Source: a virus
Lineage: Duplodnaviria > Heunggongvirae > Uroviricota > Caudoviricetes
Direction: 5' to 3' (one strand)
DNA: 41,090 nucleotides
IMG/VR virus record: IMGVR_UViG_2563366960_000010
Notes under the pieces: generated by a model
What the model saw: only the letters and a program-made list of their open reading frames with translations
Told to the model about the DNA's origin: nothing
The model's database searches: none
Shown here: positions 1 through 37,272 of the stretch, in pieces
Numbering within the stretch: the stretch's first letter is position 1
How the letters are laid out: each line of letters starts with the position of its first letter
Made by a program: the position numbers and the translations under genes

Positions 1-516
1 ATGAAATTTAAAAAATGTCTTCTGCCTGTGGCAATGTTAGCGTCATTCACTCTGGCAGGATGCCAGTCAAATGCTGATGATCATGCCGCCGATGTTTATC
101 AAACCGATCAACTGAATACCAAACAAGAAACTAAAACCGTTAATATTATTTCCATTCTTCCCGCAAAAGTTGCCGTAGACAACTCCCAAAATAAACGGAA
201 CGCACAAGCCTTCGGCGCGCTTATTGGTGCAGTCGCTGGCGGTGTAATCGGCCACAACGTGGGGTCTGGCAGCAATTCCGGAACGACGGCAGGTGCAGTT
301 GGCGGCGGAGCTGTTGGCGCGGCAGCGGGTTCTATGGTGAATGATAAAACCTTAGTGGAAGGTGTTTCTTTAACGTATAAGGAAGGCACCAAAGTGTATA
401 CCTCCACCCAGGTGGGTAAAGAGTGCCAGTTTACGACAGGTTTAGCCGTTGTTATTACCACGACGTATAACGAAACGCGTATTCAGCCAAATACGAAATG
501 TCCTGAAAAGAGCTAA
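1..516 (+). CDS. yfgH: Outer-membrane lipoprotein, glycine-zipper (SlyB/PCP-like); probable host flank gene
   Basis: 171-aa ORF with lipoprotein signal peptide and lipobox LAGC, then Gly/Ala-rich glycine-zipper core. Symbol is from remembered yfgH-yfgI-guaA synteny and length match, not a search. Confidence 0.55.
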   Translation: MKFKKCLLPVAMLASFTLAGCQSNADDHAADVYQTDQLNTKQETKTVNIISILPAKVAVDNSQNKRNAQAFGALIGAVAGGVIGHNVGSGSNSGTTAGAVGGGAVGAAAGSMVNDKTLVEGVSLTYKEGTKVYTSTQVGKECQFTTGLAVVITTTYNETRIQPNTKCPEKS

Positions 517-531
517 TGATCAGGAGGAGTC

Positions 532-1071
532 ATGAAGAAAGTTTTTCTTTGCGCCATCTTAGCCTCCTTAAGCTATCCGGCTATCGCCTCATCATTGCAG
601 GATCAACTCTCGGCTGTCGCAGAAGCGGAACAGCAAGGTAAAAATGAAGAGCAAAGGCAGCATGACGAATGGGTCGCGGAGCGCAACAGGGAAATCCAGC
701 AAGAGAAGCAACGTCGCGCAAACGCCCAGGCCGCGGCTAATAAAAGAGCGGCAACGGCAGCGGCGAATAAGAAAGCTCGTCAGGATAAACTGGACGCCGA
801 AGCCACTGCGGACAAAAAACGCGATCAAAGTTATGAAGATGAGCTACGCAGCTTAGAGATTCAGAAACAAAAACTGGCGCTGGCGAAAGAAGAAGCCCGC
901 GTCAAGCGCGAAAACGAATTTATCGATCAGGAACTGAAGCACAAAGCTGCGCAAACCGATGTGGTGCAATCTGAAGCTGACGCAAACAGAAATATGACTG
1001 AAGGCGGTCGCGATCTGATGAAAAGCGTGGGCAAAGCAGAAGAGAACAAATCGGACAGCTGGTTTAACTAA
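532..1071 (+). CDS. yfgI: Secreted coiled-coil protein of unknown function; probable host flank gene
   Basis: 179-aa ORF with SD-like GGAGGAG upstream, signal peptide, charged K/E/Q/A-rich helical body. Symbol from remembered synteny and length only. Confidence 0.5.
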   Translation: MKKVFLCAILASLSYPAIASSLQDQLSAVAEAEQQGKNEEQRQHDEWVAERNREIQQEKQRRANAQAAANKRAATAAANKKARQDKLDAEATADKKRDQSYEDELRSLEIQKQKLALAKEEARVKRENEFIDQELKHKAAQTDVVQSEADANRNMTEGGRDLMKSVGKAEENKSDSWFN

Positions 1072-1109
1072 GCGATGTCAGTAACTTCAAGCCTATGATT
1101 CGTGAGTAT

Positions 1110-1142
1110 AAAAAACCCTCTGTAGTAACAGAGGGTTTTGTT
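1110..1142. terminator. Rho-independent terminator, apparently bidirectional, between flank genes and the lysis cassette
   Basis: A-run, stem CCCTCTG / CAGAGGG with 6-nt loop, then TTTTGTT; lies between convergent genes ending at 1071 and 1290. Confidence 0.6.
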
Positions 1143-1289
1143 CATTCATAGTGCAGGGTTCAAATCATTCCCACTCAATTATTTACGATAACCATAACCA
1201 ATTGAGTGATAACATTTTTCCAAATCTCAATTTTTCCCGTACCGTTTTATATACCGTCACCGGAAATCAGTACCATGAAAAATGCCATG

Positions 1290-1772
1290 CTATCTGGTCA
1301 AAGTGTCGTACTGTTTTTCGCAGACTCTTCCGGCTTCGGCTGCCCGGTCAGCATACTCTGCCAGTTGTCTGTTTCTCTCGAGAGATTTGCTGAGCACGTC
1401 GGCAAGCAAAACTCCGGTGTCTGCGGCTGACGACCCAGCGCCGACAATGGCGTTATACTGCCTGAGCTGCTCACGGATGGCAAAGAGTTGTTGCTGCAAC
1501 CGGCCAGCGCTAGCGGCAGCATCAAGAGCATCATTGCGCGCCTGGTCGATCCTCTGCTGAGCTTCACGTTCATTGGTCACTTTCTCCTGTTCGTAGTACT
1601 GACGAACTTTGTCTTCTTCGGCTTTGCGGTCTTCTTCCGCCTGAGCATACCCGGCATCGTACTGGCGACTGCCGTGTATATTCCAGGCAACCACTCCTGA
1701 TATGACCAGAACAGCAAGCACTGCCACGATAAGAAACTGTTTCCAGTATGCTTTTACGAATGCCCAGATCAT
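1290..1772 (-). CDS. Rz: i-spanin Rz
   Basis: 160 aa, N-terminal TM helix then charged coiled-coil; start overlaps endolysin stop by 4 nt; last gene of lysis cassette. Confidence 0.75.
1298..1534 (-). CDS. Rz1: o-spanin Rz1 lipoprotein embedded in the +1 frame of Rz
   Basis: Embedded ORF with signal peptide [13 protein letters not shown] (lipobox LAGC) and Pro/Ser-rich mature part; exact start (1534 or 1531) uncertain. Confidence 0.6.
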   Translation of the reverse strand: MMLLMLPLALAGCSNNSLPSVSSSGSITPLSALGRQPQTPEFCLPTCSANLSRETDNWQSMLTGQPKPEESAKNSTTL

Positions 1773-2398
1773 ACCGCCAGCACCTTACTGGCAGTGATGT
1801 ACCGCGCTCGCCGGTCGTCGATGCCGTTCCGGCCACCATTGATAATCAGAGTTACACGTGCAATATCGCCGGTATACTTCATGCATCCTTTGCTGGCGAA
1901 GAACCACGCCGCGCTACGAGCCGCATATTCGTCCTGCGCCAGCAGTTCAGGGCTCTCCAGCAGGTCAACCTTCAGACCGTTTCCGCAATCACGATAGTTA
2001 TTCAAACCGGTAATCTGGATAAGTCCGCGCCCTCGGTAATTCCAGCCATCACCAGGGGCATTGTTCCCCATGCGTTTGCTGTATACCATATTTGCGATCG
2101 CGCGCTGGCGCTCAAGTGGCAATGGTGGTTCACCAGCACGGCGCCCCAGTGCATTAGCCTGCCCCTGAGTGAGACGCCCAGCCCGAACGAAGTTAGCCAG
2201 TCCGCTGACACTGTAGTTGAAATTCTCCTGCAACCTGGTGAAGCCCCCAGACTCATGCCCGACTTGAGCAATAAACATTGCCTGATCTTCTGCTTTGCTG
2301 ATACCAAACTCTTTCATCGCAGAAGTTATATGCGAGAACCAGCGTGCGGCCAGTGCCTCGCTGATACCAGCAGCTCGCTGGAATTGTTTAATCTCCAT
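1769..2398 (-). CDS. Endolysin, glycoside hydrolase family 19 (chitinase class I-like)
   Basis: Starts at MEIKQF (ATG 2398) inside a longer ORF; motif [12 protein letters not shown] and [12 protein letters not shown] typical of GH19 phage endolysins. Confidence 0.85.
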
Positions 2399-2696
2399 GT
2401 TTAGACCTCGATACTTTAAAAATTTGAACGACGTTACCGCGCGTTTTAATAACCGCAGCCAGCATGACAGCGTTGATAATGACCTCAGATAAATCCACAG
2501 CCATTGGCGTACGTAACCAGATTGCATAGGCGACTCGAACAGGAATACTGGCCGCAGCAACAATCAGGAAATAAGCAAGCCATCCTCCCCACCTTCGATG
2601 TTGAGAGCCGTTACGCCGGAATGTGACAACGCGAATTGCTATGCCAGTGCAAATAACTGCATTGGTGATAAGCAAAAAAAACTCATGCGTTACCAT
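2388..2696 (-). CDS. Small two-TM membrane protein in lysis cassette (holin/antiholin-like)
   Basis: 102 aa, two hydrophobic helices, SD GGGGAGAAAAG upstream, overlaps holin end and endolysin start. Confidence 0.5.
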
Positions 2697-3087
2697 CGTC
2701 TTTTCTCCCCGGAATTAACTCGCGTGGATTATCGGAACGGTGATAGAGCCATATACCAATACGCACAGCGACAATTGCTGACACGAATGCGCCTGCAGAG
2801 AAAACAATCCCTTTTTCAAAAGAGTCCTGCGTGATGGTAGGGATCAGGCTGGCTATGCCGATAAGAATTGATGCTGCTGGTTTGTAAAAGAGAAGGCCGC
2901 AAAGAAAGCTGAGCATCGACAGGAGCACCCGGCGACGGATGGGGTACTCTACTGCAGAGGTAACAAAAATTACCGCCCCAGCCAAAGCCCCTAAAGCAAC
3001 CTCCGGAGGGGCACCTGCAATAACCGCAGCAAGAGAACTAAAACTAAGCAACTGATTTAATTGCTCACTTGTTACTTGAGCAGACAT
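2683..3087 (-). CDS. Holin
   Basis: 134 aa with multiple TM segments and charged C-terminus, strong SD AGGAGA, first gene of lysis cassette. Confidence 0.65.
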   Translation of the reverse strand: MSAQVTSEQLNQLLSFSSLAAVIAGAPPEVALGALAGAVIFVTSAVEYPIRRRVLLSMLSFLCGLLFYKPAASILIGIASLIPTITQDSFEKGIVFSAGAFVSAIVAVRIGIWLYHRSDNPRELIPGRKDDGNA

Positions 3088-3368
3088 ACTTTCTCCTGTT
3101 TACTATCTATAAGCCAGTCAATTATTGATGACTAAACCCGCATAGTAAACCATATATGAATCATTATTGTTCCATATCATATATCTCAATAAAAGTACTA
3201 ATGATTTTACAGAACGAGCCAGCAGAGTGGGGGCAGTTGTACAGGAACCATAGACTTAATTTTGTATTTAATAATGCTATGGTGTAATAAACCTGAACAT
3301 GTATTTAAAATACGTACTGATTCATGATAGAATTCAAAGATAACTTTTCACAAACTCCGTTTTTGATA

Positions 3369-3395
3369 CCCGCAAAATATTGCGGGCTTTTTTTT
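3369..3395 (+). terminator. Plus-strand intrinsic terminator abutting the tailspike stop codon
   Basis: Stem CCCGCA / TGCGGG with 6-nt loop followed by T8 on the plus strand; on the minus strand the hairpin is not followed by a U-run. Confidence 0.5.
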
Positions 3396-6300
3396 AACGT
3401 TCTTCCAGAGACTGAATCCGCTCTTTTATCTTATCCATTTCTCTGCGCTGCCATGCTGCCTCGATATAGAATAAGAGATCAGGTCTGACCCCCCATCTAG
3501 ATCCTGCTGGCGTTATTTCAACGCGCTCAATGATGTCTTCCATTACCATCACTGGATTATCATCCTCATCAACAATGATGCTCCCGTCATTATCAGTCAG
3601 CGGCATTTCCCTTTGGCCAGTAATGACGTCATCATATACTGCGGGATAATCGTCATAGCAAAGAAAGGCATAGCGGCATGTTGTGCTTTCTTCTTCCATG
3701 AGTCCGTGAGAAATAAGAACATCACGAAGTTGCTGCGCGATTACACCATGATGTATCCTCGCCCCTTCTTCCCCCTTTATAGCGACAGCGTTCAGCCATT
3801 TATAAGCGATATACCTGACGTCACCCCAGGCATCCAGCAATGCTTCGTCAGGAGAGACCGGCTCTGTCTTTAATGTTCCGTCACTGGTAACCACAGGATT
3901 GGAGCCAAGATAAACTGTCGAGAACCTGTTTCCCGGACCACCAAGAGCATTTACATTATCAAGATAAGGTTTAACATCTCCGTTCTCAAAAAGATGTTCG
4001 AGTGCGTTATATACCGCGCGACGTGGAGTACTGCTTCCGGAACCATGCAACGTTATCATTGCACCATCTGCTGAAGACGTTGTTTCACCGCCGCTAACGA
4101 TTAATCTCTGAGCGGTAACATCATCAGACGGTACTTTCTTCGCAATAATGGCGTAATTACCCTCAAGTTTGACTTCCGCGCGAACTTGTCCTGATGTACC
4201 TGCATGGACAGTCAGTGACTGGACGGCAACATCATCTGTGAAATCAACGGGTACAGGAACCGTCCTCACGCCTGACGTCGACATAAAAGTAGGAAGCGTT
4301 CTGTTAGGAGTGGCTCCGTAGACAAAATCCCTTGAAACAAATTCTTCCTGTTTAATTTTCACCCTGAAACAATACAAATCAGCCGGGTGACCATCGTGAA
4401 CATAAGGATATTTTCTGTTGTTATCCCCTATGCTCCATGGGTTTAGAAAGTCTTCCCCACCGAAAATGTAGTACAGCCAGTTGTCTTTGATACAAACTGA
4501 ACCAACACCAACTGCAGAGTTAACTATTCCGCCCTGATAAATCTGATCAGTAACATTAACCCACTCTACATTATCCAGACTCCACTCATTGACGTTAACT
4601 CTGGTCATAAATGTTCTTGGATAATTTCCTGCATAACGGTTATCAGGTTCTCCTCCTTCCCACTCACCAAATGCGCGCTCACTGCCAAAAATAATCAGCT
4701 CATCGCCAACTTTGGCAAAAGGAAGGTTTGAGTGATGAACATTATTTGGGAAGCGAAGAGAATTCCATGATGTACCTAAATCAGAGCTTCTGTGCAATGA
4801 ACTACCGGGTTGAGTACTTAATGTCCCCCTGGTCGTCAGATACAGAATGCCATCATAATATTTTACACATGGCTCAGATGCATTCGCCTCATATTCTGCA
4901 GGTATGCGTCTGCGAACAAAGCTACCAGGAGAACCGAAAGCATCAGAGAAATAGAGTATCCCAAGCTCGCGTGGACCAATATCACCATTATGGTAGCCAA
5001 CAGCAAAACTGTTATCGCTAATCGTCGCAAAACTGTGAATCTCAGTAACAGGAGTGCTTCCGTCAACAAAAGAAGGAATAGTTCCAAGACTGGTTTTTCT
5101 CCATGGTGACGAGTGAAATGATGTACCAAAACTCCAGTATCTACCCTCGTTATTCTGATCCACATCCTGGGTATTTTGCGTCGTAACTGTAAAAGTATTT
5201 TTATCAATAACAGTAGTCACCGTCATATTCCCGGTAACACCTGTAACACCAGAGTTTGAGAAGTTGACAAAATCACCAGCAAATAATCCGTGATCAGTAA
5301 TGCGAATATAAGCGACTTGCTGATTTGCTGCTTTCGTTATACCACCATAAGCGCGAAGGCTGCGACTCATTGGGCGATCCCACAACTCTGCAACCTGCAG
5401 TTTATTTCCGCTCACGGTCCGCGTCTCAATTACAGCAAAAAGGCGATTTCTGACAACCCCCATACTCATGCAGTGATAGTTAACTGTGGGATAGTTTTCA
5501 TGTAAATCTGTAAGCCATTCCGGCGTTGTCCAGGTCTTCCCGTCATCTCCTGAGCGAACCCATGCAACATGGAGGTTATTTACACCATGGCGGTCTCCAG
5601 CCATAAAAGGCGCATAGATGACATTGTCATATACAAACGTTTTATCCTGCGTCCAGGCGTTGTACCACGGTGTATCTGTAATTTTAAATAACTCTCCCTG
5701 GATAAAATCTTCAGAAGCATAAAAAAGAGGCTGGCCCGGTATTCTCTCAAATAAAAAACGAGCATTTTTAAATCGACTGACATCCGGAAGAGTTGATACT
5801 TTAAAAGTAAGCCCTAATCCGTCAATTTTATAACCTGGAGATGAGGCTTCAAGGCACGCGCTTATTGCAGTGGAATCGTCATTTATACCATCACCAACAG
5901 CTCCAAAATCTTTGGGGCTAATAGCATCACGCATTTTATCCTGGAACGTTCGGTACACAGCCCCAGAACCATACTGAATAAACCAACCAAAACCACCAAC
6001 AACCCCGGCGATTGCAGCATCGACATAATTACGCATTGAGCGATTATTTACAGCGTCCTGCTCAAATGATGGATCTGCAAGGTTAGAAATTTTGTTTTGC
6101 TTTGCATCGTAATATTTTGCAAGCAAAGATGGTTTCATCAATGCACGTCTGAACCACCCAAAACATTGCTGGATCAGCATCGTCAGGTAGTCAAAGGCAT
6201 CTTCATGCACTTCGGGGAAAAATTTTCCCTGATTGCGAAGGTCTGTCTCCTGCACTACATCAAGCACACGATCTATCGTAATTCGCCATCCAGTAGCAAG

Positions 6301-6513
6301 CGGAGACGGAAGAACCACAGAACCGCCACTATAAGTGCCCGCCCCAGTTACCGTATAACCGGTATCCAGAACCAATTCTGTTACGTTTCCGTTCAGGTCA
6401 GACACCTGAACAACCAGGTCTGATTTTCTGAAAATTCGAAAAGTATACGGAAACGATGTCGTAACGCCGTTACCGGTGTATTCGTTGTGGTCAACTTCGG
6501 TTGAGACCGTCAT
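3394..6513 (-). CDS. Tailspike: endosialidase with T7 gp17-like N-terminal adaptor and C-terminal intramolecular chaperone domain
   Basis: 1039 aa. N-terminus resembles T7 tail-fibre adaptor; sialidase-type FERIP motif; two Asp-boxes (SGDDGKTW, SSDLGTSW); C-terminus resembles the self-cleaving chaperone domain of K1F-type endosialidases. Confidence 0.8.
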   Translation of the reverse strand: MTVSTEVDHNEYTGNGVTTSFPYTFRIFRKSDLVVQVSDLNGNVTELVLDTGYTVTGAGTYSGGSVVLPSPLATGWRITIDRVLDVVQETDLRNQGKFFPEVHEDAFDYLTMLIQQCFGWFRRALMKPSLLAKYYDAKQNKISNLADPSFEQDAVNNRSMRNYVDAAIAGVVGGFGWFIQYGSGAVYRTFQDKMRDAISPKDFGAVGDGINDDSTAISACLEASSPGYKIDGLGLTFKVSTLPDVSRFKNARFLFERIPGQPLFYASEDFIQGELFKITDTPWYNAWTQDKTFVYDNVIYAPFMAGDRHGVNNLHVAWVRSGDDGKTWTTPEWLTDLHENYPTVNYHCMSMGVVRNRLFAVIETRTVSGNKLQVAELWDRPMSRSLRAYGGITKAANQQVAYIRITDHGLFAGDFVNFSNSGVTGVTGNMTVTTVIDKNTFTVTTQNTQDVDQNNEGRYWSFGTSFHSSPWRKTSLGTIPSFVDGSTPVTEIHSFATISDNSFAVGYHNGDIGPRELGILYFSDAFGSPGSFVRRRIPAEYEANASEPCVKYYDGILYLTTRGTLSTQPGSSLHRSSDLGTSWNSLRFPNNVHHSNLPFAKVGDELIIFGSERAFGEWEGGEPDNRYAGNYPRTFMTRVNVNEWSLDNVEWVNVTDQIYQGGIVNSAVGVGSVCIKDNWLYYIFGGEDFLNPWSIGDNNRKYPYVHDGHPADLYCFRVKIKQEEFVSRDFVYGATPNRTLPTFMSTSGVRTVPVPVDFTDDVAVQSLTVHAGTSGQVRAEVKLEGNYAIIAKKVPSDDVTAQRLIVSGGETTSSADGAMITLHGSGSSTPRRAVYNALEHLFENGDVKPYLDNVNALGGPGNRFSTVYLGSNPVVTSDGTLKTEPVSPDEALLDAWGDVRYIAYKWLNAVAIKGEEGARIHHGVIAQQLRDVLISHGLMEEESTTCRYAFLCYDDYPAVYDDVITGQREMPLTDNDGSIIVDEDDNPVMVMEDIIERVEITPAGSRWGVRPDLLFYIEAAWQRREMDKIKERIQSLEER

Positions 6514-6617
6514 GTTAAATCTCCAGATAGTCGCAGCACCCGTTGCGCCGCATATCTGGTTATTCTATTACCTGGAAAACCACATATGGATAGAAAGGCT
6601 GTAAATACGAATAGATA

Positions 6618-6632
6618 TTACCTTTCAGGTAA
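6618..6632. promoter_or_regulatory. Operator-like 15-bp palindrome TTACCT-N3-AGGTAA
   Basis: Perfect inverted repeat TTACCTTTCAGGTAA upstream of the LexA box and the small antirepressor-like gene. Confidence 0.55.
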
Positions 6633-6669
6633 TTTGCAAAACGTGCTGGATAGCAAACAAATTATTTGA

Positions 6670-6689
6670 TACTGTATAAATATACAGTT
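6670..6689. promoter_or_regulatory. LexA (SOS) box
   Basis: TACTGTATAAATATACAGTT is a near-perfect match to the CTGT-N8-ACAG consensus, 20 nt upstream of the ATG at 6709. Confidence 0.7.
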
Positions 6690-6708
6690 ATTGCATGGAG
6701 AAGATAAG

Positions 6709-6966
6709 ATGCAGCAGTATCACTATCCACTGGAAGACGGATTTACCGAAAGGATTCACACGCCGGGAGGCGTCAGGTCACTGGTGGAGGGATCGCACTT
6801 GATGAAATTACTCCGGGATCTCGATAAGGATGGATTTAATGTCGATGGCCCACTTGCCGAACTGACTGCACTGATTAACTACGTCACCAGCTCACAGATG
6901 TCTATGCAGGATCTGCAAACACATCTCGACTATTGTGCCGAACAATTACGAAAACAAACCCGGTAA
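6709..6966 (+). CDS. Small protein homologous to the C-terminal domain of the antirepressor at 8115-8825; candidate SOS-controlled antirepressor or modulator
   Basis: 85 aa from ATG 6709 with SD GGAG. By eye about 40% identical to the last ~80 aa of the Ant ORF (shared IH.P.GV, LM.LL, DG..V.G..AEL, QTH). Confidence 0.6.
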   Translation: MQQYHYPLEDGFTERIHTPGGVRSLVEGSHLMKLLRDLDKDGFNVDGPLAELTALINYVTSSQMSMQDLQTHLDYCAEQLRKQTR

Positions 6967-6988
6967 ATTTAAAGGCCGCAAGAGCGGC

Positions 6989-7717
6989 CTATCGTTTCGC
7001 TTTGTGCTCGTCCCAGCACGTTTTGCACCATGCCATTAAGCCGTCCGCATTTTGATTATTAGGGTAAAAGCTGGTCCGTTTTCTGCGGACATTACAAATT
7101 GGGCACCACTTCATATGGCGTGTATTCTTTGGGCCATCGAGACACCTTGCACACCACTTAGTCAATCCATCTGGATTTTTTGACGATTTCCGGAATTTGT
7201 CATATGGAAGGTTTATTCTGCATCGCAAACACTGCTTGCGGCCACTTGAAACTCTGTTAGCTGATTCTTCTTTTGGCGGCGATACAGAAGGTATTCTTGC
7301 TGGCTCTGATACTGCCTGAGGTGCTTTTTTAGATGACTGAGACGATATGTCATCACCAGGGAATCTTCCATGATATGCCGGACGCATTGATACTCCAGGT
7401 GGAAGCTCAGCTGTAAACGGCTTTGGCTGAATCAGTTGCCTCTCTTTTGCTAACTCCTGCTGTTTACAATATGTCTGGATTACCGCACTATCATAAGCAG
7501 GAGGTGCGGAAATATTAGGCGCATTACCTCCAGTTTTTTGAAACTGAGTAGAGGTGTGTTCTATCACCTGTGTACGATTAATCGTTATCTCCCCATCTTC
7601 GGTCTTTATCGTTTTGTTATGATTAACGACCGTACGATCAGAGATCTTAGTCTTGTTCTGGTTGATAACGTAAATAATCACCGCAACCACACCAACAACT
7701 ATCCAGAAAACTTCCAT
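6989..7717 (-). CDS. Membrane-anchored protein with tandem CxxC zinc-ribbon repeats; candidate superinfection-exclusion factor
   Basis: 242 aa; N-terminal TM helix, Pro/Ser-rich linker, C-terminal twofold repeat C-x2-C ... DGL..WC-x2-C; SD GAGGA upstream; operator palindrome just upstream. Confidence 0.55.
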   Translation of the reverse strand: MEVFWIVVGVVAVIIYVINQNKTKISDRTVVNHNKTIKTEDGEITINRTQVIEHTSTQFQKTGGNAPNISAPPAYDSAVIQTYCKQQELAKERQLIQPKPFTAELPPGVSMRPAYHGRFPGDDISSQSSKKAPQAVSEPARIPSVSPPKEESANRVSSGRKQCLRCRINLPYDKFRKSSKNPDGLTKWCARCLDGPKNTRHMKWCPICNVRRKRTSFYPNNQNADGLMAWCKTCWDEHKAKR

Positions 7718-7737
7718 TGCTTTTCCTCACAATAACA

Positions 7738-7752
7738 TTACCTTAAAGGTAA
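7738..7752. promoter_or_regulatory. Operator-like palindrome TTACCTTAAAGGTAA
   Basis: Perfect 15-bp inverted repeat 21 nt upstream of the minus-strand start at 7717. Confidence 0.55.
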
Positions 7753-7830
7753 TATCTTGCTTTCAGGTGATCAAGCGTTAAACGCCACCAACCAAATACG
7801 GTTGATTTTGATATTTCTCCGCGTTTATCA

Positions 7831-7845
7831 TTACCTTTGCGGTAA
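7831..7845. promoter_or_regulatory. Operator-like palindrome TTACCTTTGCGGTAA (one mismatch)
   Basis: Near-perfect copy preceded by candidate -35/-10 elements (TTGATT ... TATCAT); upstream of the structured leader before ant. Confidence 0.5.
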
Positions 7846-7935
7846 ATTTACATCGCACTCCTCTTGTGCCATAGTAATCGGGCACTGGCAAAATCCAGTG
7901 CCGGGATTGGCGTCCCGGGTTACTAAGTGGCGCAT

Positions 7936-7959
7936 ACCACGCCAGACGTGGTTTTTTTA
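7936..7959 (+). terminator. Intrinsic terminator inside the leader upstream of the antirepressor gene
   Basis: Stem ACCACG / CGTGGT with 5-nt loop followed by T7; preceded by a strong hairpin GGCACTGG / CCAGTGCC at 7881-7902. Confidence 0.6.
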
Positions 7960-8114
7960 TGCGTTAAGCACAGCTATATCCGAATTATGGTGGGCTGGGC
8001 AGGGGTCCGAAAGGACGCCGGTACCACTTAGGCCGGTACGCCAACCTTGTCCAGTTCACCACCAGTAATTGGCGTTGCGGTGGTGATTAAAATCACTAAG
8101 TGGAGATAACCACC

Positions 8115-8825
8115 ATGGCTAATGCTCAAACTTCCATCTTCAAATTTGAATCTGTTAACCCTATCCGTTCCATCATTATCGATGGCCAACCATGGTTTGT
8201 AGCCCAAGACGTTTGTAGTGCGCTGCGTATCCAAAACGTCACCCAAGCACTTGAAAAACTGGATGATGATGAAAGGTCTATGTTCAACATAGGGCATGAA
8301 CATCGTGCAATTTTTGACAGCCGAGTAAAAGAGATCAACATCATCTCCGAGTCAGGCCTCTACACACTGATCCTCCGCTGCCGCGACGCAGTGACACCAG
8401 GCACTATCCCCTACCGCTTTCGTAAATGGGTTACGGGTGAGGTTCTTCCTCAGATCCGCCGCACCGGAAGCTACATTAAAAACTCGCTCCCGCAGGAAGA
8501 ACGCATAAAGATGGTTGCCGACCAGGTGGCCAACGCCACGGCGTCAGCAGTAATGCAGGCGATGAAGATAGAGAACAAAACCTACAGCGCCCCACTGAAT
8601 CCCGGCTACCGCAGCCTGATTCATTCGCCGTCTGGTGTTCTCGGCCTGACGGAGAACTCACTGCTGATGAATCTGCTGAACCAGTTACAGGACGACGGGC
8701 ACGACGTATCGGGCGCGGCGGCGGAGCTGACCACCATGTTCTGCTACATCGTCGGTGTGAGCAAATGCCTGCGTGATATCCAGACCCACGCGGAATACAT
8801 CAACGACAAGGCAGGGTTCTTCTGA
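8115..8825 (+). CDS. ant: Antirepressor, Bro-N/KilA-N family N-terminal domain
   Basis: 236 aa from ATG 8115 with SD GGAG; N-terminal Bro-N pattern (IFKFE...IRSIIIDGQPWFVAQDV); C-terminal domain paralogous to the 85-aa ORF. Confidence 0.75.
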   Translation: MANAQTSIFKFESVNPIRSIIIDGQPWFVAQDVCSALRIQNVTQALEKLDDDERSMFNIGHEHRAIFDSRVKEINIISESGLYTLILRCRDAVTPGTIPYRFRKWVTGEVLPQIRRTGSYIKNSLPQEERIKMVADQVANATASAVMQAMKIENKTYSAPLNPGYRSLIHSPSGVLGLTENSLLMNLLNQLQDDGHDVSGAAAELTTMFCYIVGVSKCLRDIQTHAEYINDKAGFF

Positions 8826-8833
8826 CGGGCGGT

Positions 8834-8860
8834 GGCACAGGGATGTGCCTTTAAATAATT
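8834..8860 (+). terminator. Weak terminator-like hairpin after ant
   Basis: Stem GGCACA / TGTGCC then TTTAAATAATT; short T-run, so weak. Confidence 0.3.
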
Positions 8861-8897
8861 CTGTACAGATTGCAGACTGTGGGTGAATAGCGTACTA

Positions 8898-8912
8898 TTA
8901 CCTTAAAGGTAA
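8898..8912. promoter_or_regulatory. Operator-like palindrome TTACCTTAAAGGTAA abutting the SD of the 55-aa gene
   Basis: Perfect copy immediately followed by AGGAGG and ATG 8925. Confidence 0.55.
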
Positions 8913-8924
8913 AGGAGGCGCGAT

Positions 8925-9092
8925 ATGACAGCGTTGAAAAATCGTACTCAGCACAATGAACAAGCCAAGCAATGCTGGGATGTCATTGGAAAAGTTATGC
9001 TTGGCCGCGCAAGCAAAGAGCGCGACAAGGATATGGTTTACCAGACAGGAACATCTTTCAGCGACTTCAAGGCGGCATTTCGCTCCAAATAG
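8925..9092 (+). CDS. Small basic protein (55 aa), first gene of an accessory two-gene cassette
   Basis: ATG with perfect SD AGGAGG at 6-nt spacing; below the 60-aa cutoff of the ORF track; no family recognised. Confidence 0.5.
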   Translation: MTALKNRTQHNEQAKQCWDVIGKVMLGRASKERDKDMVYQTGTSFSDFKAAFRSK

Positions 9093-9112
9093 AAGCACAT
9101 CAGGAGTTTTCC

Positions 9113-9553
9113 TTGAAGTTTAACATTAGAATATCTAATAGTTTTCTACATGGGGAAAGCAACACCCCTTTCGCTGTAGACGGACCTTTCCTTACTGATG
9201 ATGAAATAAAAATCATACAAAGTTTTTTAGAGGATGTTGCCAATGGAAGGGCGCTTGTTGGAAAAAACAAGCCCTCGTGGGTTGATGATAACCATGATAA
9301 AATTCCCGGCTCAGACAATTATGAGCAAGAGAATTATTGGCATTATCATTGTGGGCCAACATGGTATCCAAACACATTTAAGAATTATACCATTAACTTA
9401 AATTTCAACCCTGGCGGAAGGCATTCTAATGAATGCATTCATTATGCAAAAAATGATAATGAAATTGTCATTGTTGGATTTTCAAGAGAACACATACCTT
9501 TCCTTTCATCAGATGGAAACAACAATCCGCTTTTTAATGATGAAGAAGAATAG
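9113..9553 (+). CDS. Hypothetical 146-aa protein in AT-rich cargo region
   Basis: TTG start with SD CAGGAG 6 nt upstream; region markedly AT-rich versus neighbours; Asn/Asp-rich, acidic tail; terminator follows directly. Confidence 0.5.
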   Translation: MKFNIRISNSFLHGESNTPFAVDGPFLTDDEIKIIQSFLEDVANGRALVGKNKPSWVDDNHDKIPGSDNYEQENYWHYHCGPTWYPNTFKNYTINLNFNPGGRHSNECIHYAKNDNEIVIVGFSREHIPFLSSDGNNNPLFNDEEE

Positions 9554-9576
9554 CCCGCGCTGCGGGCTTTTTTGTG
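9554..9576 (+). terminator. Intrinsic terminator after the AT-rich cassette
   Basis: Stem GCCCGC / GCGGGC followed by TTTTTTG immediately after the stop at 9553. Confidence 0.7.
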
Positions 9577-9645
9577 GACGAAACAAAAGTCAGTGCTACA
9601 CTCATTGACGCCACATTGAGGTGGCTTATAGATGGAAATTTCACA

Positions 9646-9807
9646 ATGAAAAAAGCATTTGCTGCACTGTTCGTTTTGTTGTCTCTGGTAGCTTCAACTC
9701 AGGCCTTTGCCGGTCGTTGTCAGCACGACAGCGACACTGCTGCTGACGGCTCCCGCTGCGGTGGGCGTTCTGCGGACTCCCGTCCGGGCGGCGGTGGCAT
9801 TCGTTAA
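9646..9807 (+). CDS. Small secreted Gly/Arg/Asp-rich peptide with two cysteines
   Basis: Signal peptide MKKAFAALFVLLSLVASTQAFA then ~31-aa mature peptide; weak SD; longer track ORF would start at GTG 9574. Confidence 0.45.
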   Translation: MKKAFAALFVLLSLVASTQAFAGRCQHDSDTAADGSRCGGRSADSRPGGGGIR

Positions 9808-9830
9808 AAACAAGGCCGCGAAAGCGGCCT
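9803..9830 (-). terminator. Terminator closing the minus-strand internal virion protein operon
   Basis: Stem GGCCGC / GCGGCC (9813-9830) followed on the minus strand by a U-rich run. Confidence 0.55.
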
Positions 9831-9842
9831 GTGACATGTCAC
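9831..9842. repeat. GTGACATGTCAC palindrome copy 1 (14-mer CGTGACATGTCACA on minus strand)
   Basis: Perfect 12-bp palindrome between convergent genes; same core at 27027 and 29292. Confidence 0.6.
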
Positions 9843-9849
9843 GCTCACG

Positions 9850-9990
9850 TTATGACAAGCCTATGTACCCTGCTACACCAGATAATATCATAATAACTGC
9901 AACAGCAAATTCGCCATCGTCAATGATACATTTACGGTTCATAACGCCAAGTGCAACAAGCGCAAACACAACAAGAATAAAAGCAATCAT
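9850..9990 (-). CDS. Small hydrophobic membrane peptide (46 aa) coupled to the last internal virion protein gene
   Basis: ATG 9 nt after the stop of the 824-aa gene, SD AGGA; two hydrophobic segments; below ORF-track cutoff. Confidence 0.45.
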   Translation of the reverse strand: MIAFILVVFALVALGVMNRKCIIDDGEFAVAVIMILSGVAGYIGLS

Positions 9991-9999
9991 TTCTCATCC

Positions 10000-12474
10000 T
10001 TATTGCGGAGTGACATCCTGTGGTCGCCACCAGTATGTCTGGTTAAACTCTTTCTTCGAACGTTGCTCCATTTTACGCAAATAACCTGGTGAAAAATACT
10101 CCTGCATCTGGTTAAAGATCATGTGATCGAGAGCCGCCTTCAAGTACCAGAGATTCGCACCTGGCATCAGACCTTTCCCCAGCTTAACCAGATCACCACC
10201 AGTCTGCTCACTCTTCCCTTCCACAGCATTTAACGGTATGCCCTGAGCAATCTTCACTACGTCATCAACCAGACCAGCTACCGGGCCAAGCATCGACGCC
10301 AGCGCGCCGCTTCCGTACCTAGTGTGATCTGACAATAAAAAGTCACCGTAAAGGCCAAGACCACCACCTTTCAGTAGAGCACCAAGCCAAAATTTAGCAG
10401 CATCTTCTCCTGTCATCTCGCGAGGATTACGACCAGACGCAAGGTCGTTAAGTTGCTGCGACAAAGCGCCAAGAATGGTCGTACTGGCAATAAACGTCGC
10501 AATATATGCCGCACGCCCACCAGCAGACGGCATACCCATAGCGCGTGACCAGTGACGCATAACCACCGAGATAGGGAACGATTTAAACAGGAAAACACTT
10601 CTCGTTAATTCACCTTTCCATGTTCCACGCTGAATACCAGAACCGGTTATCAGTTGCTCACGTGCTCCCGGTGTAATAACAGCCATATCAACTTCTTCAG
10701 TTACGGCACCGAGCAGTTTACGCATTGCCTCAAATTTCACGCGTTCAGGCTCACCAAGATGTTTAACTGCTGAATCAGGGATACGCATAATGCTTTCCGG
10801 TGTCAGCATCGTATTATTACCGTTCCCCCAGTCCTCCTGTTTCGCCAGCTTCCATACGCTCCAGTCTGTGTCAGTAATCCCTTTGCTTTTCAGGATACGA
10901 AAATCAGAGTCATCGAGGCTACGAAGGTCTGGTGTACGTGACACTACTTCTCCCAGGCTTCCCATCATGGTTACGCCATAGGCGCGCTTGTGCGCATCTG
11001 ACCATGCTGTAAGCCCACTGGCACGCATTACCGCCGTTGCCGCCCAACGAGACACTGACGGCCCCATATTATCCATCGCCCAGCGGTTAACGCTGCCAAG
11101 TAGAGATTCCATCGCCAGACCAGCGCGGCGCGCCCGCGCAAGTTCTGTACGGTTCGTTGGGTCCATAGCTTCAAGCTGGTTGCGGAATAACTGGTTCATT
11201 GGAAGGTTGGTAACCTTCGCAGACAGATACATGGTTCCAAGATCAGAGAACGATGACAGCAACGCGGATCCGAGTCTGCTGGCAACCAGCCAGTTGCGGA
11301 TATTGTCAGACCATCGCGCGATGTGCGGATTCGCTACAGGCTGTGTCTTTCCGGAAATAAAGTTGTACAGATTCTCTGTGTTGTTCGCCAGCCGCTCGAC
11401 TTTACCGGTTTTACTCGGGTTAGCTGTTGCCGTTTCTGCCTTCACCTGATCAAGAAGAGAGCGGAAAACATGATCGGGGTTTGGGCCATATGTTTCCACC
11501 AGTGCAATATCTTTACTGATACCTTCCAGGTGACCGACCATGATTTCCCATAGAGAGCGATCGCCATAAAGTTGCTGATATTGCAGATAGGAATCTGCAT
11601 CTTTGAAATGTATCTGTCGTGATGCATTACCACGGTTAGCACGTGCGCCGGAAATTCGCATTCCGGTATCAGTAAGCTTATTCAGCCCACCAGTAGCGAT
11701 CGTGTTATAAGCCTCTCCAAGAAATGAAGACAACTCGGCATCGTTCATCAGTTGTCCATCGGCTCGGATATAATATTTGCGATCCAGCTTACCTATAACA
11801 TCGCTAACCCACTTATCCTTTGATACTGCCCCAACCTTTTCCATAGAATGATGTTGAGGGATCCCCCAGTTTTCGAGATAGCCAATGTCCCCACCAGCAT
11901 CATTAAACCGGCGGCGCAGCAGCTCTGTAACTTCTCTCCACGCCTTAGCACCGTTTCTTGCTTTAGCATTGCCAGTATTTTGCCCCCGCATTTCATATAC
12001 CAGGTCACGTACGCCCGCTTCATCTTCAAACAGACCAAAAAAGCGAGGATCAACTGCTTCGAATGCCTCCTGCAATTGACTCAATGCATAATCACGGGTG
12101 GCTTTTGTTCTGGATTCAACAGAGAGGAAATTAGATTTACCGTCTGCATTAAAAGCTATAGTACGGTTAAGAGCGCCAAGTTTCCCATCAGCCCCTTGAT
12201 AGCTATTGATAAATTTATCCAATCTCTGACGCGCGGCTATAGTGAGAGCCACACGACGTTTCTTTAATGCCGCTTCTCGCTGTAATTCTTCAGATGCCAA
12301 TTGTGCTGCTCGATATAGCCGCTCTGATTCGGAAAGTTGTCTCCACGACATCGGGTCATCACGAGCAATGGAGCGCATATTTCGATAAATGCGGTCTTCA
12401 ATGTTCTGTATTTCTCGCGCCGTTAACGTGCGCTGCGCCGCCTGCTGGACCGCTTGTATACATTCCTGTCTCAT
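10000..12474 (-). CDS. Internal virion / DNA-ejection protein (C-terminal part of a T7 gp16-like function)
   Basis: 824 aa, follows the 600-aa gene with 5-nt spacing; position and size in T7-like virion module. Confidence 0.55.
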   Translation of the reverse strand: MRQECIQAVQQAAQRTLTAREIQNIEDRIYRNMRSIARDDPMSWRQLSESERLYRAAQLASEELQREAALKKRRVALTIAARQRLDKFINSYQGADGKLGALNRTIAFNADGKSNFLSVESRTKATRDYALSQLQEAFEAVDPRFFGLFEDEAGVRDLVYEMRGQNTGNAKARNGAKAWREVTELLRRRFNDAGGDIGYLENWGIPQHHSMEKVGAVSKDKWVSDVIGKLDRKYYIRADGQLMNDAELSSFLGEAYNTIATGGLNKLTDTGMRISGARANRGNASRQIHFKDADSYLQYQQLYGDRSLWEIMVGHLEGISKDIALVETYGPNPDHVFRSLLDQVKAETATANPSKTGKVERLANNTENLYNFISGKTQPVANPHIARWSDNIRNWLVASRLGSALLSSFSDLGTMYLSAKVTNLPMNQLFRNQLEAMDPTNRTELARARRAGLAMESLLGSVNRWAMDNMGPSVSRWAATAVMRASGLTAWSDAHKRAYGVTMMGSLGEVVSRTPDLRSLDDSDFRILKSKGITDTDWSVWKLAKQEDWGNGNNTMLTPESIMRIPDSAVKHLGEPERVKFEAMRKLLGAVTEEVDMAVITPGAREQLITGSGIQRGTWKGELTRSVFLFKSFPISVVMRHWSRAMGMPSAGGRAAYIATFIASTTILGALSQQLNDLASGRNPREMTGEDAAKFWLGALLKGGGLGLYGDFLLSDHTRYGSGALASMLGPVAGLVDDVVKIAQGIPLNAVEGKSEQTGGDLVKLGKGLMPGANLWYLKAALDHMIFNQMQEYFSPGYLRKMEQRSKKEFNQTYWWRPQDVTPQ

Positions 12475-26412: not shown

Positions 26413-26489
26413 GTGGCATTAGCTCAGTTGGACAGAGCAACCGCCTTCTAAGCGGTTGGTCGCAGGTTCGAATCCTGCATGCCACGCCA
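26413..26489 (+). tRNA. tRNA-Arg (anticodon UCU), phage-encoded, argU-like
   Basis: 77-nt cloverleaf folded by hand: acceptor GTGGCAT/ATGCCAC, T-arm GCAGG-TTCGAAT-CCTGC, anticodon loop CTTCTAA, discriminator G, encoded CCA; core resembles E. coli argU but stems differ. Confidence 0.85.
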
Positions 26490-29647: not shown

Positions 29648-29753
29648 TCCACGCCAGATTGATTAATGACTCCCAGGTAATATAAACCCGGATACCAGCA
29701 GCCAGGCCGAAACCAATCACCATGGCATAAAGCAGAGCGTTGCACTTGTTCAT
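29631..29753 (-). CDS. Small hydrophobic membrane peptide (40 aa)
   Basis: ATG overlaps the DUF551 stop (TGATG), excellent SD AGGAGGTGA; single TM-like segment; below ORF-track cutoff. Confidence 0.5.
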   Translation of the reverse strand: MNKCNALLYAMVIGFGLAAGIRVYITWESLINLAWSAIRG

Positions 29754-30532
29754 CACTTCACCTCCTGCTGCGGTGCTGCTGGCATTTCACGCCAGTGCGT
29801 AACTGAGTGCGGATCCGGATATTCGGTGCCATCATCCCAGCGATTGCCATTCCACATTGCAGACCACATCTCACCGTCTTCATACATGACCATTACCGGA
29901 ATTAACTTATCCGGCATTCTCTCACTACAGCTTATCCAACCATCCGGAGTTACCGGATAGTTGCCAGCCTGAACAGTAGGCATATCAGGACCTTTGCGAA
30001 TCGCCCTGGCAAGATCGATTGGGTCGTCGTACAACCAGTCACCTGTTTGCGGATGATTGGCTTCTGCCAATTGTGCAGCCCACTCCAGGCCGTCTTTGTG
30101 TCCTTGCAGATAGTCCAGCGGTAACTCATCACTATTACTTACAGGTTCGGCCTGAAGCATGGCGGCGCGGCAGGCGTTCCAGCCTCTCACCTCTGCAATA
30201 GCGGCAACAGCATCGACCGCGTACATTTTAAGAGGGTTAGGCATTGGTTTTTCTTCAGGTACTACTGGCACTGGAGGGGCGGCATAAACAGGAATAACGT
30301 CCGATTGCTCTTTATTGCTTTCATCCGTCAAAGCCCAGAATAATTTTCCGGCCGGATGTTTGAAAATATAAGCAACTGGTTCTGCGCTATCAGCTTCGCG
30401 CCGCTTCTGTAGCTCTGCTGCCATTGCTCTCACGACTTCAACTGGTACCCTTGCAGCAAACTCTATGTTGGTGATCAGCTCATTAAGATATTGCTCGCTG
30501 GGATACTGTTTCTTATCGGTTAAAGGGGTCAT
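29753..30532 (-). CDS. DUF551-domain protein
   Basis: 259 aa; C-terminal W..I...ERMP......VTHWREMP pattern typical of DUF551 in lambdoid nin regions. Confidence 0.6.
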   Translation of the reverse strand: MTPLTDKKQYPSEQYLNELITNIEFAARVPVEVVRAMAAELQKRREADSAEPVAYIFKHPAGKLFWALTDESNKEQSDVIPVYAAPPVPVVPEEKPMPNPLKMYAVDAVAAIAEVRGWNACRAAMLQAEPVSNSDELPLDYLQGHKDGLEWAAQLAEANHPQTGDWLYDDPIDLARAIRKGPDMPTVQAGNYPVTPDGWISCSERMPDKLIPVMVMYEDGEMWSAMWNGNRWDDGTEYPDPHSVTHWREMPAAPQQEVK

Positions 30533-30533
30533 A

Positions 30534-31025
30534 TCACTCTCCTTTGATGCGAATGCCAGTGGTACTCATTCTCCTGATTTCCCAGAGCACACGAGGAACA
30601 CCACCGTTTCCGACCGGATCGCGTTTACTCCGCAGGGCGACGCTTGATTCCGCCCAGCTTTTTCTTGGAGGAAGCTCTTTCACACGAACAAAACCAGCTG
30701 CGCGAAGAGATGCTCCTGATTCATCTGCCCGGGTGTACGTAATACAACGTTGATAACCCATAGCTTTTGCTGCCCGCCAGACAGCACCATAAAGCGCGCT
30801 GTTAGCGTTGCGTTCTCCTGTGGTACATGTGCGATTTACTTCAAGCGTTAATCCATCGTCCAAATGTCGTGCAACAGGTCTACCGGCTGTCGCCACACCT
30901 ATCAATTCTCCGGCATCATTTCTCAGACCAATGCTGAATTTATGCCCCACCGGGGGTTTATTGTGTCGGTGATGTCTTGATATAAACGCCTTCGCAACAC
31001 GAAGAGTAACCGGTGAAATTTGCAC
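30534..31025 (-). CDS. Hypothetical protein (nin-region)
   Basis: About 163 aa from GTG 31025 with SD AAGGAGAG (track ORF extends to 31064); contains HRH..PPVGH; family not recognised. Confidence 0.45.
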   Translation of the reverse strand: MQISPVTLRVAKAFISRHHRHNKPPVGHKFSIGLRNDAGELIGVATAGRPVARHLDDGLTLEVNRTCTTGERNANSALYGAVWRAAKAMGYQRCITYTRADESGASLRAAGFVRVKELPPRKSWAESSVALRSKRDPVGNGGVPRVLWEIRRMSTTGIRIKGE

Positions 31026-31027
31026 TC

Positions 31028-36067: not shown

Positions 36068-36367
36068 ATGAACGTTAATCAGCAGAAAAATCTTCAAAAA
36101 ATCATGCTGGCATTCGACAAGGACTACCGCCTGTCAGAACAGCTATATGACCGACAAGTTGAACTGATTGAGAGCATCCGACTTCATCAACTGTCCTCAA
36201 CTTTCGACGTTGTAACAGGCAAAGGCGTTCGTCAGGAAGTGCTGGAGGCTGCTAAAGACAGCCCTGAGTTCGAAGAACTGATGGATGCCTACCGGCGCGA
36301 GGCAATGGCAATTATAGCGCGCTGGGATCTGGCGGATCAGCTTGATGGGCAGAGGGACGCGGCATGA
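36068..36367 (+). CDS. Hypothetical early protein (99 aa) preceding the recombination genes
   Basis: ATG 36068 with SD GGGAGGG; stop overlaps the exonuclease start (ATGA). Confidence 0.45.
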   Translation: MNVNQQKNLQKIMLAFDKDYRLSEQLYDRQVELIESIRLHQLSSTFDVVTGKGVRQEVLEAAKDSPEFEELMDAYRREAMAIIARWDLADQLDGQRDAA

Positions 36368-37263: not shown

Positions 37264-37272
37264 GGAGAAAAA

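Follow-up and report, generated by a model that had tools for sequence, protein, structure and literature searches.

A probable endosialidase tailspike in an ε15-like prophage

The window analyzed here (a 41,090-nucleotide stretch of viral DNA; IMG/VR record IMGVR_UViG_2563366960_000010) encodes on its minus strand, at positions 3394 to 6513, a protein that is very probably the tailspike with which a temperate ε15-like podovirus (Uetakevirus, ZX5 type) of K1 Escherichia coli binds and destroys its receptor. On the basis of the open reading frame (ORF) and of Pfam and PDB matches, we annotate the gene as encoding a precursor of an endosialidase (endo-N-acetylneuraminidase, GH58) of 1039 aa. The initial annotation had predicted such an enzyme with specificity for polysialic acid and thus for the K1 capsule, and this prediction is supported by the domain matches in Pfam and PDB, by the conserved active-site residues, by near-identity to the enzyme of prophage CUS-3, and by the K1 type of carrier strains. 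Endosialidase tailspikes decide which phages are able to infect K1 strains of E. coli, which rank among the leading causes of neonatal meningitis; K1 is also a major capsule type of ExPEC and APEC. The enzymes serve as tools for the removal and detection of polysialic acid. The enzyme family, the protein, the phage type, and the K1 hosts have all been described before, so the finding, although correct, is ordinary and leaves current understanding unchanged.

Domain architecture of the tailspike

The ORF begins with an ATG codon and has the length of 1039 aa originally proposed for it; the corresponding gene of strain APEC O1 (99.9% identical) has a coding-sequence call of the same length from PGAP. 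All four endosialidase domains and the Peptidase_S74 domain exceed the Pfam gathering cutoffs. From the N terminus onward, and with all coordinates on the minus strand, the protein consists of a virion attachment (anchor) domain of the ε15-like/Uetakevirus type (aa 1 to 194; 5932 to 6513), delineated by nucleotide and amino acid identity and PDB matches; an endosialidase N-terminal extension (End_N_terminal, PF12218, E = 6e-32; aa 205 to 271; 5701 to 5901); a six-bladed β-propeller catalytic domain (End_beta_propel, PF12217, E = 1e-233, 775 bits against a cutoff of 24; aa 272 to 721; 4351 to 5700); a β-barrel nested within the propeller (End_beta_barrel, PF12195, E = 8e-46; aa 383 to 465; 5119 to 5367); a trimeric stalk (End_tail_spike, PF12219, E = 9e-78; aa 722 to 876; 3886 to 4350) that corresponds to the β-helix stalk of endoNF, the endosialidase of phage K1F; and a C-terminal intramolecular chaperone domain (Peptidase S74, PF13884 and PDB code 3gw6; aa 877 to 1039; 3397 to 3885). 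The β-barrel is 67% identical to that of K1F and 99% identical to that of CUS-3, and in endoNF it carries a polysialic acid-binding site (PMC12632334). The segment from aa 205 to 876 aligns continuously with endoNF (PDB codes 1v0e and 3gvl), and the phi92 endosialidase (4hiz) matches over the same residues. The resemblance of the C terminus to a self-cleaving chaperone, pointed out in the initial annotation, is real: PF13884 matches aa 877 to 937 (E = 1.7e-10; 41 bits against a cutoff of 22), and the endoNF stalk and chaperone domain (3gw6) matches aa 757 to 1038 (E = 1.3e-93).

We also considered whether the protein might instead be a non-sialidase β-helix depolymerase with sialidase-like motifs arising by chance. 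Sister Uetakevirus tailspikes with the same N terminus are annotated as eliminase or GH28 related, and there is a weak pectate lyase-like match at aa 201 to 221 (PF12708, E = 0.035). That match, however, spans only the common GDGxxDD junction motif, whereas the remainder of the protein matches endosialidase models (E values as low as 1e-233) and, from aa 205 to 876, the structures of endoNF. The homology is thus closer to endosialidases than to any non-sialidase β-helix tailspike, and we regard this alternative as already refuted, its probability being negligible.

Two Asp-boxes had been noted, and both are present within the propeller region, namely, SGDDGKTW (aa 321 to 328; 5530 to 5553) and SSDLGTSW (aa 576 to 583; 4765 to 4788). 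The pattern [ST]xDxGxx[WF] thus occurs twice, against 0.065 occurrences expected per shuffled sequence, and both occurrences align with Asp-boxes of the K1F enzyme, where they belong to propeller blades 1 and 4 (PMC2716378). The FERIP motif taken earlier as sialidase type is likewise present (aa 255 to 259; 5737 to 5751), but it is not diagnostic. Together with the junction motif DFGAVGDGINDD, it sits in the PF12218 extension (aa 205 to 271), outside the propeller (aa 272 to 721), and the aligned position reads YERIP in K1F and WERLA in the K1E endosialidase. Its arginine is absent from the key catalytic residues named for K1F in a mutational-scan paper citing earlier work (PMC12632334). For these reasons we rejected FERIP as a sialidase signature and do not count it as evidence of sialidase chemistry. 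In GH33 exosialidases, by comparison, the arginine of the F/YRIP motif belongs to the catalytic arginine triad (PMC10298468), and the tailspike lacks this signature.

Active-site and self-cleavage residues

The residues named as key for catalysis in K1F, H350, R549, E581, R596, and R647 (PMC12632334), are all identical in the tailspike, where they correspond to H309 (5587 to 5589), R515 (4969 to 4971), E547 (4873 to 4875), R562 (4828 to 4830), and R613 (4675 to 4677). Similarly, the Ser-Lys dyad of endoNF (S911/K916) and its assisting stalk arginine, R897 (PMC8326128), are conserved as S877, K882, and R863. A cut at S877 by this dyad (S877/K882) is predicted to remove the chaperone and to leave a mature spike of 876 aa. 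In the stalk, R803 and S814, which we take to correspond to contacts of the endoNF stalk binding site, are conserved.

Two positions of the endoNF binding sites described in the literature differ in the tailspike, K410 being replaced by G369 and Q853 by M819, and both differences are common to CUS-3. Since K410 is reported to be essential in vitro, these replacements raise the alternative that the protein retains polysialic acid binding but is catalytically inactive or altered in specificity (for O-acetylated K1 or for the alternating 2,8/2,9 polymer of K92), so that it would act as a lectin-like adhesin and not as a depolymerase. The fourteen neuS-like genes at 80 to 90% identity found in E. 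coli, which show that related capsule types exist, would fit an altered specificity. Against inactivity, all five of the key active-site residues are kept, and the K410A variant is without a defect in the phage context despite the in vitro result (K1F mutational scan; PMC12632334). Moreover, SiaK1 of CUS-3 has the same two substitutions, and its GenBank record (CP000711, Lederbergvirus) assigns it GO:0016996, endo-α-sialidase, with direct-assay (IDA) evidence (PMID 16689790). We therefore judge this alternative to be very improbable and retain an active depolymerase as the preferred reading.

For the copy in the window, we infer endosialidase activity from the 99 to 100% identity of its catalytic part to SiaK1, whereas trimerization, self-cleavage, and capsule-dependent infection are suggested by homology with endoNF and SiaK1. 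Under this model, three chains would form a trimer, with the C-terminal chaperone domain (aa 877 to 1039) directing their folding; once the stalk has folded, the dyad, with the help of R863, would cut at S877 and free the chaperone; and the mature spike would join the tail via its ε15-type N-terminal domain. The β-barrel and stalk sites would then bind α-2,8-polysialic acid, the propeller active site would cleave the polymer internally, and the virion could in this way reach the outer membrane by tunneling across the K1 capsule. Host range would consequently be limited to K1-type encapsulated E. coli.

Prophage context and lifestyle

The surroundings of the gene are those of an integrated phage, and the temperate lifestyle assumed in the initial annotation is well founded. 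An attachment site core, ATTGAGTGGGAATGATT (1163 to 1179, minus strand), marks the prophage/host boundary beside yfgI and is an exact match to the attP/attB core of phage ZX5 (vB_EcoP_ZX5; accession no. MW722083), whose homology to the window begins exactly at position 1163. At the other end, a tyrosine integrase (39840 to 41090, minus strand; Pfam Arm-DNA-bind_3, Phage_int_M, and Phage_integrase) shows 98% identity to the integrase region of ZX5, and its start codon forms the end of the window. An HTH repressor-like gene, a terminase gene, and a portal gene are also present. Downstream of the tailspike gene lies a lysis cassette identified by Pfam matches (1290 to 3087, minus strand), comprising two holins, a GH19 endolysin, and a DUF2514 protein that is annotated as "endopeptidase" in related phage records; its gene order is the same in APEC O1 and ZX5. 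Between the two is an AT-rich 3' flank of the tailspike gene (3113 to 3393, minus strand), which includes a hairpin just after the stop codon (3369 to 3386) and is specific to this phage lineage; the Uetakevirus backbone homology resumes at position 3112. A search of the phage collection for the source of this flank (window positions 3088 to 3440) returned only ZX5 and two Phi05 records.

Overall, 83% of the prophage part (1163 to 41090) aligns in the same order with ZX5, which its taxonomy line places in Uetakevirus, at 96 to 99.7% identity. The ZX5 counterpart of the tailspike gene, ORF7, is 99.8% identical in nucleotide sequence and differs in two amino acids (S368R and A388V); its GenBank record calls it only "tail fiber domain-containing protein," although the paper on the phage already lists its endosialidase and chaperone domains (PMC9782041). 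ZX5 is a temperate phage that was isolated on an O87:H52:K1 strain, on which it forms plaques and which it lysogenizes, and it integrates at the 3' end of guaA (PMC9782041, 2022). Outside the tailspike, the window and ZX5 differ by cassettes, including an additional 242-aa membrane/Cys-rich ORF (6989 to 7717) and a different YqaJ/RecT recombination module. A PADLOC search of the variable cargo ORFs close to the tailspike gene gave no hits to defense systems. Among complete genomes, the best match to window positions 1 to 12000 has 97% coverage and 98.7% identity.

These cassette replacements, which lie in the early and moron regions and account for the approximately 17% of the phage part that differs from ZX5, could also be read as signs of a defective cryptic prophage, in which the endosialidase would be a remnant irrelevant to host range; strain CE10, in which the CUS-3-type endosialidase gene is frameshifted, shows that genes of this kind may decay. 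Here, on the other hand, the tailspike ORF is intact and only 2 residues away from that of the viable ZX5, none of the large virion ORFs differs in length from its counterparts in APEC O1 and ZX5, and the integrase, attachment core, lysis cassette, terminase, and portal are all in place. We hence consider a defective relic unlikely and favor a functional temperate phage. As for the suggested relevance of the enzyme to capsule-dependent virulence, it finds no support, the authors of the ZX5 study having seen no effect of lysogeny on virulence (PMC9782041).

Distribution among E. coli genomes

The ε15-type gene is found in 72 of 5426 complete E. coli genomes, in which the RefSeq annotation (PGAP) names the product, 99.9% identical to the tailspike, an [quoted passage not shown]; the CUS-3 type is found in 181 of the same 5426 and neuS in 329. 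Carriers are strongly enriched among neuS-positive (K1) genomes, with at least 7 known carriers in a sample of 60 neuS-positive genomes versus 0.8 expected (P = 1e-5). They include strains named O1:K1, O2:K1, and O7:K1, as well as IHE3034, which has a full kps/neu cluster (kpsFEDUCS, neuDBACES, and kpsMT) at pheV. Many K1 strains carry both the ε15-like prophage and CUS-3. The knowledge that the CUS-3 enzyme also occurs in a second, widespread family of temperate phages is useful for the prophage typing of K1 lineages.

Relationship to known endosialidases and tailspikes

In the alignment with the K1F, K1E, and CUS-3 endosialidases proposed as a check, the tailspike proved to match K1F end to end and to be nearly identical to the core of the CUS-3 enzyme. 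EndoNF (gp17; PDB codes 1v0e, 3gvl, and 3gw6) agrees with the tailspike in the order of its domains, N-terminal extension through chaperone, and is approximately 62% identical over aa 196 to 1039, with all of the key catalytic and self-cleavage residues in common and K410 and Q853 not conserved; the tailspike propeller has a 7-residue insertion, FVDGSTP, relative to it. K1F itself is a lytic phage with a T7-type N-terminal adaptor, unlike the temperate ε15-like prophage with its ε15-type anchor.

The likeness to the P22-like prophage CUS-3 is closer still. A tract of 2393 nt (3423 to 5815, minus strand; gene nt 699 to 3091), both ends of which fall within the coding sequence, is 99.5% identical to siaK1. 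At the protein level, identity is 95% over 847 aligned residues, reaching 99 to 100% in the propeller, barrel, and stalk (aa 272 to 876) and 93% in the chaperone domain. Near-identity starts at aa 233, the preceding aa 195 to 232 having diverged, and divergence is also seen in the final 9 codons and in the 3' flank. The two phages have a temperate lifestyle and K1 E. coli hosts in common, but CUS-3 has a P22-type head-binding N terminus with no similarity to aa 1 to 192 of the tailspike and integrates at argW and not at the guaA/yfgI site. Neither a neuO gene nor an AAGACTC repeat was found downstream of the tailspike. We rejected the identification of the window as a CUS-3 prophage, since the N-terminal domain, integration site, and backbone differ and neuO is absent; the window carries the CUS-3 catalytic module although it is not CUS-3.

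Signs of gene conversion are seen between ε15-type and CUS-3-type endosialidase genes. It is conceivable, and we hold it as a tentative view somewhat short of an even chance, that CUS-3 (at argW) and the ε15-like phage (at guaA/yfgI), unrelated but coresident, undergo repeated gene conversion, perhaps catalyzed by the phage's own YqaJ/RecT pair, and thereby maintain one endosialidase module in common. The ε15-type gene would then be an older, more divergent acquisition, with an interior (nt 699 to 3091) since homogenized with CUS-3, which would account for the persistence of divergence at the edges only (aa 195 to 232, the final 9 codons, and the 3' flank). Among five genomes with both genes, same-genome copies of the two types are not systematically closer than between-genome copies, and clear conversion tracts occur in CE10 only, so that the idea draws on mosaic allele patterns. 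If it is true, receptor specificity evolves in concert across coresident prophages.

With respect to its anchor, the tailspike belongs with those of other ε15-like phages, whose common N-terminal particle-binding domain it possesses. The part coding for aa 1 to 194 is 98% identical in nucleotide sequence to the tail fiber genes of Uetakevirus phiv142-3 and phage EC.W1-9, with the homology stopping exactly at gene nt 582, and is 68 to 70% identical in amino acid sequence to the tailspikes of Salmonella phages SPC32H and PAT1; the N terminus also matches the tailspike N termini of PDB entries 28lx and 8ck1 (E = 1e-35). The same anchor is thus found in phiv142-3, EC.W1-9, the CUVM3 prophage, and Salmonella ε15-like phages. 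Uetakevirus-type tailspike genes occupy the same genome position, between the anti-repressor region and the holin genes, and all those compared have the junction motif (K/R)D(F/W)GAxGDGxxDD. The presence of the CUS-3 enzyme behind this anchor helps in understanding how phages exchange receptor-binding modules. The other Uetakevirus-type tailspikes have unrelated receptor-binding modules, annotated as eliminase, GH28-related, or SGNH hydrolase, and hence presumably target other surface polysaccharides.

Endosialidase architecture of the tailspike

The tailspike is encoded by a single 1039-aa open reading frame (ORF) at window positions 3394 to 6513 on the minus strand, equal in length to the PGAP coding sequence of the 99.9% identical gene in Escherichia coli APEC O1. 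As judged by Pfam, its endosialidase architecture is complete, with all domains far above their gathering scores: End_N_terminal (aa 205 to 271), End_beta_propel (aa 272 to 721; E = 1e-233) with a nested End_beta_barrel (aa 383 to 465), End_tail_spike (aa 722 to 876), and the Peptidase_S74 "chaperone of endosialidase" domain (aa 877 to 937). Comparison with PDB entries aligned aa 205 to 876, with no large gaps, to endoNF, the tailspike endosialidase of lytic phage K1F (1v0e and 3gvl), and to the phi92 endosialidase (4hiz), and aa 757 to 1038 matched a construct of the endoNF stalk and chaperone (3gw6). The initial annotation had reported this ORF and three motifs in it, FERIP (aa 255 to 259) and the Asp-boxes SGDDGKTW (aa 321 to 328) and SSDLGTSW (aa 576 to 583), an observation that is confirmed throughout. 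Two Asp-box patterns compare with 0.065 expected in shuffled sequence, and both align with the two of the K1F enzyme, which belong to propeller blades 1 and 4 (PMC2716378).

The initial annotation had also proposed alignment with the K1F, K1E, and CUS-3 endosialidases. A deep mutational scan of K1F lists H350, R549, E581, R596, and R647 as key residues of the endoNF active site (PMC12632334); in this four-way alignment all of them are conserved, as H309, R515, E547, R562, and R613. The self-cleavage dyad S911/K916 of endoNF and the assisting R897 (PMC8326128) are likewise kept, as S877, K882, and R863. Hence, the interpretation of the protein as a predicted endosialidase is supported, as is the likeness of its C terminus to a self-cleaving chaperone, here by the Peptidase_S74 domain, the 3gw6 match, and these three residues. 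Where endoNF has K410 and Q853, the window tailspike has G369 and M819, exactly as in CUS-3; in the context of the phage, K410 can be dispensed with (PMC12632334).

FERIP, by comparison, is not valid evidence of a sialidase. It lies in the N-terminal extension, outside the propeller; the aligned position reads YERIP in K1F but WERLA in the K1E endosialidase, and its arginine is absent from the listed endoNF active-site residues (PMC12632334).

By homology, and with domain roles taken from the K1F literature (PMC12632334 and PMC8326128), the chaperone domain would trimerize the stalk before being released by a cut at S877; the resulting spike of 876 aa would be joined to the tail via its ε15-type N terminus. 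Barrel and stalk sites would bind polysialic acid while the propeller would cleave alpha-2,8 linkages internally, and the virion would therefore be able to penetrate the K1 capsule.

Prophage context

The window is a prophage: after the host genes yfgH and yfgI (1 to 1071) comes an attachment core, ATTGAGTGGGAATGATT (1163 to 1179), identical to that of the temperate Escherichia phage vB_EcoP_ZX5, whose integration site is the 3' end of guaA (PMC9782041). From precisely 1163 onward the sequence is homologous to ZX5, with 83% of the remainder covered at 96 to 99.7% identity. A tyrosine integrase gene occupies 39840 to 41090, the window ending at its start codon, and the window also encodes a repressor-like HTH protein and a recombination pair, YqaJ/RecT. 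From the attachment core, ZX5 homology, integrase, and repressor-like gene, the phage is therefore temperate, as originally described, and belongs to the ε15-like genus Uetakevirus, a placement taken from the taxonomy line of the ZX5 record.

The tailspike gene is followed by genes for two holins, a GH19 endolysin, and a DUF2514 protein. A GC-rich hairpin, CCCGCAAAATATTGCGGG (3369 to 3386), lies 8 nt past the stop codon of the tailspike. Because only the plus strand has its T-run, it resembles a terminator acting on transcripts that run against the tailspike gene; the tailspike transcript may read through it into the lysis genes. Directly upstream of the tailspike is an additional 242-aa ORF (6989 to 7717, minus strand) with a hydrophobic, probably membrane-spanning N terminus and a Cys-rich C terminus with CxxC pairs. 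It gave a weak Stc1 match (E = 3e-4) and no match in PADLOC; it is lacking in ZX5 and APEC O1 and present, annotated as hypothetical, in MS20653 and E19035, and may be a moron gene. Between the terminase and portal regions the phage carries a tRNA-Arg gene (anticodon TCT; 26413 to 26489, plus strand), which the APEC O1 prophage copy shares. The early-region cargo at 30534 to 31064 and 29753 to 30532 (both minus strand) is unlike that of ZX5; it encodes a protein with weak likeness to Mom (PF25680, where E = 1e-4 falls short of the gathering score), together with a DUF551 protein.

Association with K1 hosts

Several lines of evidence bear out the proposed link to the K1 capsule. The strain on which ZX5 was isolated is of type O87:H52:K1 (PMC9782041). 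Among 5426 complete E. coli genomes, 72 carry a RefSeq-annotated gene 99.9% identical to that of the window; these carriers include APEC O1, IHE3034, O7:K1 CE10, and several strains named O1:K1:H7 or O2:K1:H5. In IHE3034, pheV is the site of a full K1 cluster, made up of kps region 1, neuS (the polysialyltransferase gene), neuE, neuC, neuA, neuB, neuD, kpsT, and kpsM. The neuS gene occurs in 329 of the 5426 genomes, and an even sample of 60 of these 329 includes at least 7 known carriers (BCE049, EC69, GPEC403-625, CUVET18-565, Br_54_kylling, E23, and F11), against 0.8 expected by independence (hypergeometric P = 1.2e-5). The best match of window 1 to 12000 in complete genomes has 97% coverage and 98.7% identity. 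The suggested relevance to virulence is unsupported: ZX5 lysogeny had no effect on virulence or serum sensitivity (PMC9782041).

Mosaic edges and possible exchange between coresident genes

Backbone homology to other Uetakeviruses stops at gene nt 582 and returns at window 3112, about 280 nt beyond the stop codon. The siaK1 gene of the P22-like prophage CUS-3 is 99.5% identical to gene nt 699 to 3091 only, so that both ends of this 2.4-kb tract (window 3423 to 5815) fall within the ORF. Outside this tract, the edges of the module look endosialidase-like but have diverged from CUS-3, or else are peculiar to the lineage: aa 195 to 232 (window 5815 to 5932) form a diverged endosialidase N-terminal stretch, and the last 9 codons with the 280-nt AT-rich 3' flank (window 3113 to 3422) match, within the phage collection, only the ZX5 and two Phi05 records. 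The sequence (K/R)D(F/W)GAxGDGxxDD, just after the anchor domain, opens all receptor-binding modules compared, including the nonendosialidase ones of sister phages, and may be a recombination joint. The YqaJ-like exonuclease and RecT recombinase pair (36364 to 38295, plus strand) stands where ZX5 has a RecE-like/RecT module with no nucleotide homology; such a phage-encoded single-strand-annealing system could drive tailspike module exchange.

The full CUS-3-type gene is found in 181 of the same genomes versus 72 for the ε15-type gene, and many K1 chromosomes carry both at separate sites, argW and guaA/yfgI, respectively (e.g., IHE3034 at 2.715 and 2.884 Mb, CE10, EC69, APEC O18, F11, and E19035). 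Aligned for 17 sequences, the shared tract has 48 variable sites, and the two types are told apart only by a few sites at its two edges. The CUS-3-type copy of the O7:K1 meningitis strain CE10 (L011; NC_017646.1, 836444 to 839390) has the ε15-type state at the four diagnostic sites of nt 3079 to 3085, and two further alleles, at nt 1389 and 1819, are private to it and the ε15-type copy of that strain. This CUS-3-type copy is annotated as a frameshifted pseudogene, with one base inserted near nt 2065 as counted along the window gene; its ε15-type counterpart is intact. The CUS-3-type copies of F11 and APEC O18 have ε15-type alleles mid-gene. The mosaic allele sharing suggests gene conversion between coresident prophages, but the sample is small, and when distances between the two types were simply compared within and between genomes, no systematic signal emerged.

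Relation to known endosialidases

The propeller, barrel, and stalk of CUS-3 SiaK1, for which the GenBank entry cites evidence of endo-alpha-sialidase activity from direct assay, are 99 to 100% identical to those of the window tailspike, whereas its P22-type N terminus is unrelated to the first 194 aa. The part encoding those 194 aa has 98% DNA identity to the tail fiber genes of the Uetakevirus phiv142-3 and phage EC.W1-9, whose distal modules, one annotated as "eliminase," are unrelated; the tailspikes of Salmonella phages SPC32H and PAT1 show 68 to 70% protein identity over the same region. Over the whole gene, the closest counterpart is ORF7, the tail protein of ZX5, with 99.8% identity and 2 aa differences. 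The endosialidase finding is already known, because of the ZX5 paper, the RefSeq protein name, which agrees with this identity, and the characterized enzymes SiaK1 and endoNF. The ZX5 paper (2022) describes ORF7 as having an endosialidase domain plus an endosialidase intramolecular chaperone and discusses the K1 capsule (PMC9782041).
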